Assembly: GCF_003018255.1 (NCBI RefSeq)
Contig: NZ_CP027440.1
DNA length: 64,000 nt
Direction: 5' to 3' (one strand)
From: Escherichia coli
GTDB lineage: Bacteria > Pseudomonadota > Gammaproteobacteria > Enterobacterales > Enterobacteriaceae
Shown: positions 45,889 to 49,654 of the stretch, piece after piece
Position numbering within the stretch: the first letter of the stretch is position 1
How the letters are laid out: each line of letters opens with the position of its first letter
Made by a program: the position numbers and the translations under genes
Notes under the pieces: generated by a model
The model's input: the letters and a program-made list of their open reading frames with translations, nothing else
Database searches by the model: none
Told to the model about the DNA's origin: nothing

Positions 45889-46332
45889 TTATCCGCGGCT
45901 GATTATGTCCGCTAATTGTTTTTCTGATGCTGCTGTTAATAATTGGTTGAGTATTTCTTCTTCACACAATAATTCACTTAACGCCTGAATAGCGCCAATG
46001 TGCGAATCGGCATCGGCAGCAGAAAGCCCGATGAGTAATTTTATCGGTTCGTCATTCCCCGGAAAATAAACGCCTTGTTTAAGTAATGTTAAAGACATCC
46101 CGGTTTTAAGCGCCCCACATTCCGGTCGAGCATGAGGCATTGCCACGCCTGGTGCGAGAATATAATAAGGGCCATTGTTAATGGTGGAATCTTTAATTGC
46201 CTGAATGTAATTCTCGCTGATATAGTTTTTATCCAGCAATGATGCCATCGAGAAATCGATAGCTTCCTGCCAATCTTTTGCTGAATGTATAACTGAGATT
46301 GATGATTCTGGAAAATAATCAAGAAGCCGCAT
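45889..46332 (-). CDS. cmtB: Cryptic mannitol-family PTS enzyme IIA (147 aa)
   Basis: ORF 45889-46332; PTS EIIA-2 fold; AAGGA SD upstream of the start. Confidence 0.8.
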   Translation of the reverse strand: MRLLDYFPESSISVIHSAKDWQEAIDFSMASLLDKNYISENYIQAIKDSTINNGPYYILAPGVAMPHARPECGALKTGMSLTLLKQGVYFPGNDEPIKLLIGLSAADADSHIGAIQALSELLCEEEILNQLLTAASEKQLADIISRG

Positions 46333-46708
46333 AAATAATCCTTATTTTATTTTTAGGGCACCGTCCGGCGGTAAAAATAAAATACTCGTGCGGTTTAATG
46401 AAAGCAATTGGGTACGCGAGAAGAAAAACCCCATGAACAAAAATAATAAAACTTTAAATAACAACAACATGAAATTGATATTTTTAAAGTCAACTTTGTA
46501 TTTGTTATGTTTATCACAAAATCAACATTTTGATTGTTGTTGTATTTGTGATACATATCGCCATTTATTTATTGAATGTCCGAAAGCATACTTTTCTAAT
46601 GCAATGTTTTTTCGCTATACCCCTTTATAGATTCTGAATTCTCACCTGTCGGCTATTTTCTCCTCACCTCATGTGACATATTCCCCACTTTACTCAAGGA
46701 AGATTCAT

Positions 46709-47617
46709 ATGAAAGCACCTGTTTCAATAACCTCATTTCGCCCACAAAAATCTATTGCTATCGTCATTGGCGTGCTTGCCGTGGTTGTGCTGCCATTTCT
46801 CTCGTATTACACCGTTAATGAAGGTGAACGCGGCATTTTGCTGCGCTACGGAAAAATCGTAAAAGTTGCCGAGCCGGGTCTGGGTTTTAAGATCCCTTTT
46901 ATGGAAAGCGTGGAGAAAATTTCCACGCGTAATCAGGCTGTGGTTTATCAGGGATTACAGGCCTACAGCCGCGACCAGCAACCGGCACAAATGACAGTAT
47001 CAGTCAGCTTCCACATTAAACCTTCAGAAGCAGGCGCGGTTTATACCACCTACAACACCATTGAAGCATTAAAAGATCGTCTGATTGTCCGTCAGTTGCC
47101 AACTCAACTGGAGAACGTTTTCGGCCAATATACCGCCATCAGCGCCGTACAGGATCGTACAAAACTGGTTCAGGATCTACAAAATGCAATGCGTAAAGCC
47201 GTTGTTGGCCCGGTGGTGATTGATGGTGTCCAGATTGAAAATATTGATTTTTCTGACGCTTATGAAAAATCGATTGAAGATCGAATGAAAGCAGAAGTCG
47301 CCATTGCCACACGTAAGCAAAATCTGGAAACAGAGAAAATCCAGGCGCAAATAGCGGTAACTCAGGCCCAGGCAGAAGCAGACAGTAAACTGGCGGCAGC
47401 CAAAGCAGAAGCTGAGACTATTCGCGTAAGAGGCGCGGCAGAGGCTGAAACTATTCGTTTAAAAAGTGCGGCTGAAGCAGAAGCGATCCGCCTGCGCGGT
47501 GAAGCTCTGCGGGATAATCCCGGACTTGTTGCCCTCACCACTGCTGAGCGTTGGGACGGTAAGCTACCCGATACCATGATCCCCGGCAGTACAGTTCCGT
47601 TTATCTCTACTAAGTAA
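46709..47617 (+). CDS. SPFH/band-7 (stomatin/prohibitin/flotillin/HflKC-like) membrane protein, 302 aa, stand-alone
   Basis: ORF 46673-47617 trimmed to the ATG at 46709 with AAGGAAG 6 nt upstream; one N-terminal TM helix, SPFH core, C-terminal Ala/Glu-rich tail with tandem AEAETIR-like repeats; not at this position in K-12 as I recall. Confidence 0.8.
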   Translation: MKAPVSITSFRPQKSIAIVIGVLAVVVLPFLSYYTVNEGERGILLRYGKIVKVAEPGLGFKIPFMESVEKISTRNQAVVYQGLQAYSRDQQPAQMTVSVSFHIKPSEAGAVYTTYNTIEALKDRLIVRQLPTQLENVFGQYTAISAVQDRTKLVQDLQNAMRKAVVGPVVIDGVQIENIDFSDAYEKSIEDRMKAEVAIATRKQNLETEKIQAQIAVTQAQAEADSKLAAAKAEAETIRVRGAAEAETIRLKSAAEAEAIRLRGEALRDNPGLVALTTAERWDGKLPDTMIPGSTVPFISTK

Positions 47618-47645
47618 AAAAAGGGCCGCTTTCGCGGCCCTTCTC
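47616..47645. terminator. tktA rho-independent terminator, also abutting the SPFH gene stop
   Basis: Hairpin GGGCCGC-tttc-GCGGCCC flanked by A7 on the + side; on the - strand followed by TTTTTTT. Confidence 0.6.
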
Positions 47646-47662
47646 ACAAAGCATCTTACCGA

Positions 47663-49654
47663 TTACAGCAGCGCTTTCGCTTTCGCAACAACGTTGTCAA
47701 CGGTGAAGCCGAACTCTTCAAACAGCAGCTCTGCCGGAGCAGATTCACCGAAGGTGGTCATGCCGACGATAGCACCGTTCAGGCCAACATACTTGTACCA
47801 GTAGTCAGCAATACCCGCTTCCACCGCAACGCGTGCAGTAACCGCTTTCGGCAGTACAGACTCACGGTAAGCCGCATCCTGCTTGTCGAACGCGTCGGTA
47901 GACGGCATGGAAACCACGCGCGCTTTCACGCCTTCAGCAGTCAGTTTTTCGTAGGCAGCAACCGCCAGTTCAACTTCAGAACCGGTCGCGATGAAGATCA
48001 GTTCCGGCTGACCGGCACAGTCTTTCAGCACATAACCACCGCGCGCGATGTTTGCCAGCTGCTCTTCAGTACGTTCCTGCTGCGCCAGGTTCTGACGGGA
48101 GAGGATAAGCGCAGTCGGGCCGTCCTGACGCTCAACGCCGTATTTCCACGCGACCGCGGATTCAACCTGGTCACACGGACGCCATGTGGACATGTTCGGG
48201 GTCACGCGCAGTGAAGCGACCTGCTCAACCGGCTGGTGAGTCGGGCCATCTTCGCCCAGACCGATGGAGTCGTGGGTGTAAACCATCACCTGACGCTGTT
48301 TCATCAGCGCAGCCATACGTACGGCGTTACGTGCGTATTCCACGAACATCAGGAAGGTGGAGGTGTACGGCAGGAAGCCACCGTGCAGGGAGATACCGTT
48401 AGCAATCGCGGTCATACCGAACTCGCGAACACCGTAGTGGATGTAGTTACCCGCAGCATCTTCGTTGATTGCTTTAGAACCAGACCACAGGGTCAGGTTA
48501 GACGGTGCCAGGTCAGCAGAGCCGCCGAGGAATTCCGGCAACAGCGGGCCGAACGCTTCAATCGCATTCTGAGACGCTTTACGGCTGGCGATTTTCGCCG
48601 GGTTAGCCTGCAGTTTAGCGATGAACTCTTTCGCTTTGGCGTCGAAGTCAGACGGCATTTCGCCTTTCATACGGCGGGTAAATTCAGCGGCTTCCTGCGG
48701 ATAAGCTTTCGCGTAAGCAGCGAATTTCTCGTTCCATGCGGATTCTTTCGCCTGGCCTGCTTCTTTCGCATCCCACTGAGCATAGATTTCAGACGGGATT
48801 TCGAACGGTGCATATTTCCAGCCCAGCTGTTCGCGGGTCAGGGCAATTTCAGCGTCGCCCAGCGGCGCACCGTGGGAGTCGTGCGTACCGGCTTTGTTCG
48901 GGGAACCGAAACCGATGATGGTTTTGCACATCAGCAGGGACGGTTTGTCAGTCACTGCGCGCGCTTCTTCTACTGCGCGTTTGATGGATGCCGCGTCATG
49001 ACCGTCGATGCCGCGAATAACGTGCCAGCCGTAAGCTTCGAAACGCATTGCGGTGTCGTCGGTGAACCAGCCTTCAACGTGACCATCGATAGAGATACCG
49101 TTGTCATCGTAGAACGCAATCAGTTTACCCAGCTTCAGCGTACCCGCCAGAGAACAAACTTCGTGGGAGATGCCTTCCATCATGCAGCCGTCGCCCATGA
49201 AGGCGTAGGTGTAGTGGTCGACGATGTCGTGGCCCGGACGGTTAAACTGCGCCGCCAGCGTTTTTTCTGCAATCGCCATACCGACTGCGTTGGCAATACC
49301 CTGACCCAGCGGACCTGTAGTGGTTTCCACGCCAGCGGTGTAACCCACTTCCGGGTGGCCCGGAGTTTTAGAGTGCAGCTGACGGAAGTTTTTCAGTTCT
49401 TCCATCGGCAGATCGTAACCGGTGAGGTGCAGCAGGCTGTAGATCAGCATGGAGCCGTGGCCGTTGGACAGCACGAAGCGGTCACGGTCAGCCCAGGACG
49501 GATTCTGCGGGTTGTGTTTCAGGAAATCACGCCACAGGACTTCGGCAATGTCAGCCATACCCATAGGGGCACCCGGGTGACCGGATTTGGCTTTCTGTAC
49601 TGCGTCCATGCTCAGCGCACGAATAGCATTGGCAAGCTCTTTACGTGAGGACAT
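47663..49654 (-). CDS. tktA: Transketolase 1 (663 aa)
   Basis: ORF 47663-49684 trimmed to [22 protein letters not shown]... Confidence 0.95.

Follow-up and report, generated by a model that had tools for sequence, protein, structure and literature searches.

Some Escherichia coli strains carry a gene between cmtB and tktA that K-12 does not have. What does this gene encode, and did carriers gain it or did other strains lose it? We consider it likely that it encodes a stand-alone HflC/prohibitin-like SPFH protein forming a periplasmic cage, and that the gene is an old resident on the tktA side that was lost in K-12-type strains.

An intact SPFH gene between cmtB and tktA

We analysed a 64,000-nucleotide stretch of an E. 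coli genome (NZ_CP027440.1; hereafter the window). A sequence-only reading had described a 302-codon open reading frame on its plus strand, preceded by a good ribosome-binding site, as strain-variable acquired cargo.

46709..47617, plus strand: SPFH/Band-7 gene, 302 codons plus TAA (open reading frame list and sequence)
46696..46702, plus strand: ribosome-binding site AAGGAAG, 8 nt 5′ of the ATG (read from the sequence)
47621..47642, minus strand: convergent tktA terminator hairpin, GGGCCGC-GAAA-GCGGCCC plus T7, also lying directly 3′ of the SPFH stop

The gene is real and intact. RefSeq holds the same CDS at the identical position (WP_000646927.1) in strain JNE23-011, whose genome is 100% identical here, and names its product “prohibitin family protein”; the ribosome-binding site was also confirmed. 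The gene is thus already annotated and its family already described, and neither will surprise a specialist. The TAA stop at 47615-47617 continues into the A-tract of the tktA hairpin, as the earlier reading had noticed. RNAfold assigned this hairpin −22.7 kcal/mol on the minus strand and −18.1 kcal/mol on the plus strand, and it was absent from the output of a simple terminator scanner. The only neighbours of the SPFH gene are cmtB and tktA, and, as first read, no NfeD-like gene adjoins it.

Domain architecture and predicted fold

Five features were placed along the encoded protein.

46751..46807, plus strand: N-terminal transmembrane anchor, residues 15-33 (mean Kyte-Doolittle 2.49 in a 19-residue window)
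46811..47338, plus strand: SPFH (Band_7) alpha/beta domain, residues 35-210 (Pfam PF01145, AF2, Foldseek)
47255..47515, plus strand: single long Ala/Glu-rich helix, residues 183-269, a predicted cage-wall helix (AF2)
47405..47503, plus strand: three tandem 33-nt (11-residue) AEAExIR repeats (repeat search; TRF period 33)
47537..47605, plus strand: C-terminal motif TAERWDGKLPxTMIPGxxVPFI, residues 277-299, a putative cage-cap strand (homolog alignment)

The protein is a member of the SPFH/Band 7 superfamily (PF01145). The Pfam Band_7 model matched residues 35-210 over positions 2-176 of its 176 (E=5.6e-32), and the SPFH core proposed from the sequence was thereby found by profile search. The proposed N-terminal membrane helix was recovered as well: residues 15-33 are the only hydrophobic segment, and AF2 placed a helix at 13-32. 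The AF2 model (pLDDT 82.9 overall and about 90 across the SPFH domain) shows the transmembrane segment, the SPFH domain and then an 87-residue helix; the 88 residues from 183 to 270 include 22 Ala and 13 Glu.

Structural comparison using Foldseek ranked HflC first (7vhq_G, 1.7e-17), ahead of PHB1/2, erlin, HflK, stomatin and QmcA, each of them a chain from a solved multi-subunit SPFH assembly. The match probability was 1.00 for HflC, HflK, PHB1/2, erlin, stomatin, QmcA and flotillin. At the sequence level, HflC (1.8e-13) and HflK (7.5e-11) were the best PDB matches, with QmcA, prohibitin and stomatin behind them.

The Ala/Glu-rich tail with three AEAETIR-like repeats, described in the earlier reading, was reproduced at 47405-47503, with units 100/79/61% identical. 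The middle unit is an extra copy specific to Escherichia, homologs from other genera having two units, and indels occur as 11-residue quanta. The antisense open reading frames that recur over the gene arise from the Ala/Glu-rich repeat and are artefactual. In the C-terminal motif, W282, G284, L286, P287, P292, P297 and F298 are invariant or near-invariant across 21 homologs. The motif corresponds to a separate PHROG module (phrog_38808, E=1.7e-19) that is common to prophage SPFH lipoproteins at ~50% identity, and its “...LP...P...” strand presumably resembles the prohibitin C-terminus.

Two haplotypes divide E. coli

We scored presence and absence on 5426 complete E. coli genomes. The SPFH+ allele occurred in 1816-1830 of them (about 33%) and the K-12-type allele in about 3595, K-12 and O157 included, so that two haplotypes cover 5425 of the 5426 genomes (1830 + 3595). 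The gene is therefore strain-variable, as had been suspected: it is neither in K-12 nor core across E. coli. The adjacency of cmtB and the transketolase gene in K-12, stated in the earlier reading, also proved correct, the two lying 313 bp apart. Full-length copies were found in 1818 of the 1830 carriers and partial copies in the other 12, and all 60 carrier rows sampled bear the annotation “prohibitin family protein”. Carriers include S88, 536 and a strain named ST69; S88 and 536 we take to be B2 ExPEC. This view of the phylogroup distribution comes from a few recognised strains among 60 matches listed per search rather than from a tree.

46411..47661, unstranded: haplotype-specific segment of the SPFH+ allele (breakpoints located by aligning K-12 to the window with blastn), replaced by 234 bp in K-12-type genomes

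The 234-bp spacer of K-12 is an in-register homolog of the cmtB-proximal spacer, 49.5% identical and without about 1 kb. Shuffled sequences reached 29.5±3.2% identity in this alignment, and 0 of 5000 attained 49.5%. A tblastn search of the K-12 spacer recovered no remnants of the SPFH open reading frame (best E=0.77), and blastn against 89 fetched loci gave no match that would point to a source for the 234-bp segment. A deletion scar in K-12 that fused the ribosome-binding site to the stop was considered and rejected because K-12 has another hairpin and the one of the SPFH+ allele is kept across genera. In strain O145 RM9873 the SPFH+ haplotype occurs together with the CmtA protein allele of K-12, which indicates recombination between the haplotypes.

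The AT-rich upstream spacer

Three elements were marked between cmtB and the SPFH gene.

46333..46708, unstranded: AT-rich, probably regulatory divergent spacer from cmtB to the SPFH gene, 376 bp, 31.9% GC
46503..46562, unstranded: two CRP-like TGTGA-N6-TCACA sites within a 21-nt imperfect palindrome (pattern search)
46623..46639, plus strand: conserved, putatively promoter-proximal block CTTTATAGATTCTGAAT, about 70-85 nt 5′ of the ATG (cross-genus alignment)

A spacer of about 375 bp had been read as AT-rich and, for that reason, typical of an acquired gene. Its composition was upheld, with 31.9% GC over 46333-46708 against 51.7% for the whole window, but the meaning attached to it was not: the K-12 spacer is equally AT-rich (32.9% GC), and the region appears to be a shared cmtB/SPFH regulatory region and no insertion scar. 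Its first 78 nt (46333-46410) are 97% identical to K-12. The CRP-like sites, at 46503-46518 with one mismatch and 46547-46562 with two, lie at the same offsets in K-12 (+171 and +215 from the cmtB ATG), and a repeat search found an inverted repeat and a direct repeat over this region.

The CTTTATAGATTCTGAAT block is the only upstream block kept from Escherichia to Kluyvera, Pseudocitrobacter and K. spallanzanii, and it is missing from the K-12 haplotype. The upstream alignment also showed that ACTCAAGGA at the ribosome-binding site is kept across genera. A sigma-70 scan gave no canonical promoter for the SPFH gene, inspection by eye around the CTTTATAGATTCTGAAT block revealed no convincing match to the sigma-E (GGAACTT...TCTGA), sigma-32, RcsB or PhoP consensus, and Rfam returned only sub-threshold chance matches to RNA elements in the spacer and UTR.

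Old resident or acquired cargo

The sequence-only reading regarded the gene as acquired and wedged into an intergenic region. Several observations are in keeping with horizontally acquired cargo inserted between cmtB and tktA in some E. coli lineages. The gene is missing from K-12 and about 66% of genomes, it follows an AT-rich spacer, and its GC content of 48.3% and GC3 of 0.436 fall below those of the window's long open reading frames (GC3 0.576±0.048, a deficit of ~3 SD). Members of the family are also often carried by jumbo phages, prophages and plasmids, and lateral transfer in SPFH families has been reported (PMC2636767).

Comparison across genera told against this account. The gene holds the same position, convergent with tktA and with the hairpin kept, in Kluyvera, Pseudocitrobacter and four Escherichia lineages other than E. 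coli (E. albertii, E. whittamii and two more); Pseudocitrobacter has exactly the SPFH+ hairpin sequence and Kluyvera an almost identical one, and that of K-12 is different. In Klebsiella spallanzanii the gene likewise follows epd, on a contig that stops short of tktA. Synonymous divergence pointed the same way. Against E. albertii, dS was 0.69 for the SPFH gene and 0.36-0.53 for cmtA, cmtB, loiP and yggP; against Kluyvera it was 2.45, with speB at 1.46 and loiP saturated. Over six species pairs, dS of the SPFH gene was concordant with that of cmtA, yggP, loiP and speB and ranked with species distance (0.26-0.36, then 0.69, then 1.4-2.5).

Nor does the locus carry the marks of insertion that we looked for, namely bounding direct repeats, a tRNA, an integrase, a transposase or other mobility genes. 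The nearest copies on mobile elements are only 45-74% identical, and the K-12 site is a diverged homolog with a ~1-kb gap rather than an empty target. GC3 is indeed atypical, but it is low in SPFH orthologs of other genera too, and cmtB is lower still. Recent insertion is, on balance, unlikely.

The gene looks instead like an old resident lost from K-12-type strains, and we infer that the loss occurred on the K-12 side. Long residence has a cost: most Enterobacteriaceae species representatives are without the gene, which requires several independent losses. An ancient horizontal origin may nonetheless lie behind it, given the low GC3 and a family that is common on phages and plasmids.

Could the gene instead be a decaying, non-functional remnant on its way to loss? 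It has disappeared from two thirds of E. coli, the sigma-70 scan was negative and the AT-rich upstream region is possibly H-NS-silenced. Against this, dN/dS relative to orthologs is 0.01-0.06 over large dS, so the gene is under strong purifying selection; it is moreover full-length in nearly all carriers, and its ribosome-binding site and upstream block persist across genera. The remnant reading is strongly disfavoured and, to our minds, hardly credible.

Relatives on phages and plasmids

The protein matched phrog_200 (“lipoprotein”) at 4e-63, and relatives were present in 285 phage records, including the jumbo phages GAP32, fHe-Yen9-04 and Serratia phage BF at about 50% identity. Most phage copies and Pseudomonas plasmid copies are 45-59% identical, and relatives on Enterobacter and Kosakonia plasmids 71-74%; pCAR1-type plasmids are among the carriers. 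An Stx2a prophage encodes an SPFH lipoprotein (BCI50276.1) with the classic lipoprotein signal LVGC and the same C-terminal module. Its gene lies near the int/xis end, some 0.6 kb upstream of xis, in a position typical of morons.

These matches, to phrog_200 and phrog_38808 alike, together with the moron-type position in the prophage and the copies on Pseudomonas and Enterobacter plasmids, raise the idea that the protein acts primarily in phage-host conflict, for instance in superinfection exclusion or membrane protection, and that the chromosomal gene is a domesticated phage or plasmid gene. A search of PADLOC-DB 2.0 yielded 0 defence families at E<=0.01, and on that ground assignment to a defence system was rejected. 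No defence or phage genes lie nearby, no sequence feature is particular to defence, and the chromosomal position is long stable with vertical inheritance. We regard a conflict role as very unlikely.

Subfamily placement and membrane topology

Although HflC and HflK are the closest solved relatives, the protein scores far below their equivalog cut-offs: 60.5 bits against 134.4 (TIGR01932) and 53.3 against 427 (NF008259) for HflC, and 37.4 against 159.4 (TIGR01933) and 34.6 against 660 (NF008181) for HflK. Across NCBIfam, no model reached its cut-off. FtsH regulation is therefore not to be assumed for this protein.

The RefSeq product name and the stand-alone gene fit the NfeD-less “p-prohibitin”, or SPFH4, group. 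Members of SPFH4, the prokaryotic prohibitins, are reported to have no NfeD partner, are predicted to be periplasmic in orientation and rarely co-occur with HflK/C in one genome (Hinderhofer et al. 2009, PMC2636767). The missing NfeD partner is accordingly normal for this group. As hflK and hflC are placed in E. coli K-12 by the K-12 literature, strains carrying the gene would be an exception to the rare co-occurrence. Clustering of open reading frames over 80 loci gave genus-level synteny only, with no conserved partner, no NfeD and no paralogous neighbour. We found no studies of this E. coli gene or its phage homologs in the literature.

Regarding orientation, the transmembrane region and the subsequent VxEGERG motif align with periplasm-facing HflC. 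K2, R11 and K14 precede the helix, and with three K/R on either side the positive-inside signal alone is not decisive. A lipobox-like Cys takes the place of the transmembrane end in 10 of 99 close homologs; these homologs and the lipoprotein prophage relatives suggest that the SPFH domain is exported.

The contrary topology, a cytoplasm-facing flotillin- or stomatin-like scaffold of the YqiK or QmcA type whose NfeD partner is encoded elsewhere (ybbJ or yqiJ), shares the plan of transmembrane helix, SPFH domain and coiled coil, draws on significant structure and sequence matches to QmcA and is compatible with the balanced K/R count. It is opposed by the better matches to periplasmic HflC and HflK, by a flotillin score of 17.3 bits against a cut-off of 700 (FloT, NF058507), by the exported domain that the lipobox homologs and prophage lipoproteins suggest, and by an NfeD neighbour at 0 of 80 loci. 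We judge it quite improbable.

A proposed periplasmic cage

For the favoured periplasmic orientation, we propose that the N-terminal helix would anchor the protein in the inner membrane, N-in/C-out, leaving the SPFH domain, the hendecad-repeat helix and the C-terminal strand in the periplasm, as in HflK/HflC. By analogy with all solved SPFH proteins, it would most likely assemble into a large homo-oligomeric ring or cage fencing off a patch of inner membrane. Such a cage could regulate the membrane proteins it encloses, either their accessibility or their activity, with FtsH-type quality control as the leading candidate client. With its additional 11-residue repeat, the Escherichia protein would have a cage wall longer by three helical turns (about 1.6 nm) and an unchanged register.

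At the level of the locus, the SPFH gene would be an old chromosomal resident at the tktA 3′ end in Enterobacteriaceae. One ancient, deeply diverged haplotype without ~1 kb (the proximal promoter plus the open reading frame) would have become fixed in K-12-, O157- and ATCC 8739-type strains, and homologous recombination would since have reshuffled the two E. coli haplotypes. The locus is then a clean two-haplotype polymorphism, insertion-like when seen from K-12 and better explained by loss.

Four SPFH genes are recognised in E. coli by a literature that rests on K-12 (PMC10434171). A fifth, strongly conserved and probably periplasm-facing, is present in roughly a third of complete E. coli genomes and has been missed by K-12-based work. 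If it forms its own cage, K-12 phenotypes of HflK/C (FtsH control, aminoglycoside tolerance, respiration) may not transfer directly to carriers, and the protein would give the unstudied “p-prohibitin” group a bacterial representative amenable to genetics. A more speculative and, in our view, rather unlikely idea is that in some lineages (S88 and 536 included) it builds a second homo-oligomeric periplasmic cage beside HflK/C, competing for FtsH or enclosing another client, with effects on the quality control of membrane proteins, on tolerance of aminoglycosides or oxidative stress, or on susceptibility to phages. Were this so, the ancient presence/absence dimorphism could be held by selection, not drift.

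Comparison with known SPFH systems

HflC and HflK (PDB 7vhp, 7vhq, 7wi3, 9cz1) are the best match in both sequence and structure. They share with our protein a single N-terminal transmembrane helix with the V-x-EGERG-x-x-LRFGK motif after it, and a layout of SPFH domain, long helix and C-terminal segment, together with the predicted periplasmic orientation, and neither has an NfeD partner. Identity is, however, about 24%. HflK and HflC are encoded by paired genes, whereas a single gene is found here, which would give a homo- rather than a hetero-oligomer. The long N-terminal extension of HflK is missing, and the C-terminal motif ERWDGKLPxTMIPGxxVPFI is distinct.

The SPFH4 proteins (PMC2636767) resemble it in being stand-alone, without NfeD, and in having an N-terminal transmembrane helix and a predicted orientation facing away from the cytoplasm. 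Eukaryotic PHB1/PHB2 (PDB 8rrh, 9o9z) were Foldseek matches 2 and 3, but their sequence similarity is weak (E=4e-5 to 4e-4).

QmcA-YbbJ and YqiK-YqiJ (PDB 8z5g) belong to the same superfamily, have a cage-forming architecture and match significantly. They differ in their predicted topology, which is opposite, in the adjoining NfeD gene, present there and absent both here and at 80 related loci, and in being less similar to our protein than HflC and HflK are. The SPFH proteins of phages and plasmids are of the same family and have the C-terminal module in common with it; in phages a lipoprotein signal often replaces the transmembrane helix, whereas the gene described here is chromosomal, syntenic and vertically inherited.

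The window encodes a stand-alone, probably prohibitin-type SPFH protein

The sequence-only reading had described a 302-codon SPFH/band-7 gene with a good ribosome-binding site, an N-terminal transmembrane (TM) helix, an SPFH core, three tandem repeats in an Ala/Glu-rich tail, a stop codon running into the A-tract of the tktA terminator and an AT-rich upstream spacer of about 375 bp. All of these were borne out:

46709–47617 (+): SPFH ORF, 302 residues (ORF list and sequence)
8 nt 5′ of the ORF start (+): ribosome-binding site AAGGAAG (sequence)
Residues 15–33: hydrophobic segment, the sole one in the protein (mean KD 2.49)
Residues 35–210: Band_7 domain (Pfam E = 5.6e-32)
47405–47503: three 33-nt tandem repeats in the Ala/Glu-rich helix (repeat search)
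47615–47617 (+): SPFH stop TAA, abutting the hairpin A-tract
47621–47642 (−): hairpin, strong intrinsic terminator of the convergent tktA (−22.7 kcal/mol, then T7)
5′ of the SPFH gene: spacer of 376 bp, 31.9% GC

A GTG at 46673, 5′ of the ATG, is unlikely to be the start, because orthologs and the RefSeq protein open with MKAP. An antisense 71-aa ORF (47362–47577, −) covers the Ala/Glu-rich repeat region and has equivalents in 30 related loci; this recurrent frame is most likely no gene, being a by-product of GCN/GAR-rich codons opening the complementary frame.

Among solved structures, the best sequence matches were HflC (1.8e-13), HflK (7.5e-11), QmcA (8e-7) and prohibitins (4e-5 to 4e-4). 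The AF2 model (pLDDT 82.9) comprises a TM helix (13–32), an SPFH domain (33–181), a single helix (183–269) and a low-confidence C-terminal tail. Foldseek ranked HflC first (1.7e-17), then PHB2, PHB1, erlins, HflK, stomatin and QmcA, all of them chains of solved multi-subunit SPFH assemblies. The protein is neither an HflC/HflK equivalog nor a flotillin, since its scores fall well short of the curated cut-offs; in RefSeq it carries the name "prohibitin family protein". The SPFH4 prokaryotic prohibitins lack an NfeD partner, have no studied bacterial member, are predicted to face the periplasm and seldom co-occur with HflK/C (Hinderhofer et al. 2009, PMC2636767). When the ORFs of 80 related loci were clustered, no partner gene was conserved above the rank of genus. 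Calling it a stand-alone SPFH protein was correct, and the missing NfeD is thus expected rather than anomalous. The gene is already annotated and its probable subgroup described though unstudied; it encodes a fifth E. coli SPFH protein, overlooked by K-12-centred work (PMC10434171).

The cmtB–tktA junction is bi-allelic in E. coli

In K-12, cmtB and tkt are adjacent, 313 bp apart, and the gene proved strain-variable, as had been supposed. Using 46333–47662 as a megablast query against 5426 complete E. coli genomes, we found the full segment in 1816, whereas nearly all others, including K-12 MG1655, ATCC 8739 and O157, matched the first 78 nt only. The SPFH ORF alone was present in 1830 genomes (full-length in 1818), with "prohibitin family protein" annotated in 60/60 sampled ORF-match rows. 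The alternative 234-bp K-12 segment, which lacks the gene, occurred in 3595; together these account for 5425/5426 genomes, making the locus essentially bi-allelic. The protein is strongly conserved, and carriers among the matches listed include the extraintestinal pathogens S88 and 536, both of phylogroup B2, as well as a strain bearing the name ST69 (O15:H18), a sequence type of phylogroup D.

Between the haplotypes, homology ends at 46410 and returns at the tktA stop (47662), and the tktA terminator differs in K-12. Between +79 and +260 from the cmtB ATG, the two spacers are 49.5% identical in register 0, compared with ~30% in other registers and shuffles (0/5000 shuffles reached the observed value), and CRP-like sites lie at the same offsets, +171 and +215, in both. 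The regulatory region next to cmtB is therefore present in K-12 as a deeply diverged copy. Missing from K-12 is ~1 kb holding the SPFH ORF and a block upstream of its ATG that is conserved across genera (46623–46639); no coding remnant of the ORF was found in the K-12 haplotype. Two of the CRP-like sites are borne by a 21-nt imperfect palindrome and a 44-nt-spaced direct repeat (window 46496–46562; K-12 haplotype locus L001 2671–2730), their offsets kept though the K-12 haplotype is otherwise 50%-diverged; the 376-bp spacer holds three matches against ~0.16 expected by our estimate (window-wide shuffle mean 27). Within the 78 nt conserved with K-12, a perfect 13-nt inverted repeat, TATTTTATTTTTA / TAAAAATAAAATA (46343–46384), flanks a GC-rich mini-hairpin just upstream of the cmtB start codon and might act as a leader or operator of the cryptic cmt operon.

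O145 RM9873 carries the SPFH+ haplotype beside a CmtA protein identical to that of K-12, indicating that haplotypes shift between backgrounds via homologous recombination. The last tktA codons read ...KAKALL in the window (47663–47680) versus ...KAKELL in K-12 (L001 2814–2830); E. whittamii (L008) combines the SPFH gene with a K-12-type tktA end, and breakpoints therefore also fall inside the tktA 3′ end.

The SPFH gene has most likely been lost rather than gained

The sequence-only reading took the gene for acquired cargo wedged into an intergenic region, a view that its position elsewhere does not support. In E. albertii, E. whittamii, Escherichia sp. MOD1-EC7003 and L015 (a divergent lineage labelled E. 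coli), and likewise in Kluyvera intermedia and Pseudocitrobacter, it lies tail to tail with tktA. Its left neighbour in Kluyvera is epd-pgk-fbaA-mscS instead of the cmt cluster; in Klebsiella spallanzanii it is also epd, on a contig that stops short of tktA. The stable pair is thus SPFH→←tktA. The terminator GGGCCGCTTTCGCGGCCC and its flanks are identical in Pseudocitrobacter and nearly identical in Kluyvera. Synonymous divergence of the gene follows that of neighbouring core genes in every comparison.

dS (NG86) of the SPFH gene and neighbouring core genes, window as reference
L015: SPFH 0.36; neighbours 0.26–0.49
E. whittamii: SPFH 0.31; neighbours 0.30–0.44
E. albertii: SPFH 0.69; neighbours 0.36–0.53
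Pseudocitrobacter: SPFH 1.44; loiP 4.2
Kluyvera: SPFH 2.45; speB 1.46, loiP saturated

dS of tktA and speB was lower in all Escherichia comparisons, tentatively attributed to codon bias. The SPFH gene has a dN/dS of 0.01–0.06. Its composition does deviate (GC3 0.436 versus 0.576±0.048 in the window's long ORFs), but orthologs in other genera are likewise low (0.41–0.55), so this is a property of the gene and no sign of recent import. A search for direct repeats, tRNA genes or mobility genes bounding the locus found none. Strain variability therefore most likely reflects loss, the opposite direction to that first proposed. The gene is absent from most Enterobacteriaceae species representatives, so several losses are required; an ancient transfer into an ancestor is possible.

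Other Escherichia lineages carry a REP/BIME-containing ~175-bp unit with a duplicated terminator hairpin between the SPFH stop and tktA (L015:6894–7140, L008:6894–7140, L003:5906–6150 and L009:6894–7492, with three tandem copies in L009), which explains two-piece megablast matches with ~170 extra bp; the simple form, with a single hairpin, is seen in the window, Kluyvera and Pseudocitrobacter. L015 (NZ_JAATUR010000026.1, Escherichia coli SCPM-O-B-8794) differs from the window by 4–13% of nucleotides over seven genes, about as much as E. whittamii, and may be a member of a cryptic Escherichia clade, not of E. coli proper. Across L003, L009 and L015, cmtB (45889–46332; GC3 very low, 0.32–0.39) is unusually divergent (86–90% aa identity, dN 0.06–0.07) compared with the adjoining cmtA (97–99%, dN 0.003–0.014), which may point to selection that is relaxed or diversifying, or else to old allelic lineages tied to the dimorphic spacer.

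Relatives, predicted topology and a proposed assembly

The family also matches phage protein families phrog_200 (4e-63) and phrog_38808 (1.7e-19). Relatives occur in jumbo phages (~50% identity) and on plasmids of Enterobacter and Kosakonia (71–74%) and of the pCAR1 type in Pseudomonas (~58%), and lambdoid prophages encode diverged SPFH lipoproteins. PADLOC models gave no match to the protein, and a phage-related role is a low-probability alternative. BCI50276.1 (L088:1871–2698, Stx2a-converting phage Stx2_95, near the prophage int/xis end), annotated as "serine protease", is really a Band_7/SPFH lipoprotein (Pfam E = 1.7e-30, signal ...GLVGC) that has a C-terminal module in common with the window protein. 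Many other phage matches cover this ~60-aa module (phrog_38808) only, including an "Escherichia phage P1" record, P88 and Pseudomonas phages such as vB_PaeP_C2-10_Ab22.

From sequence, the favoured topology is N-in/C-out, with the SPFH domain in the periplasm, because K2, R11 and K14 stand N-terminal of the TM helix; the helix and the downstream EGERG-LR-GK motif align to HflC, which faces the periplasm; a lipobox-like Cys ends the hydrophobic segment in 10/99 close homologs; and the Stx2a-prophage relative, ~50% identical over its C-terminal 65 residues, opens with a textbook lipoprotein signal (...GLVGC). The number of AEAExIR units is two in family members from other genera and three in Escherichia, and the remaining length variants are 11 or 22 residues apart; such 11-residue quanta would match a hendecad-periodic helical wall whose register has to be kept. 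On the model of every solved SPFH assembly, the protein would form a homo-oligomeric cage, its wall built from the long helix and its cap from the invariant C-terminal motif (W282, G284, L286, P287, P292, P297, F298), and FtsH would, by analogy only, be the obvious candidate for an enclosed client.
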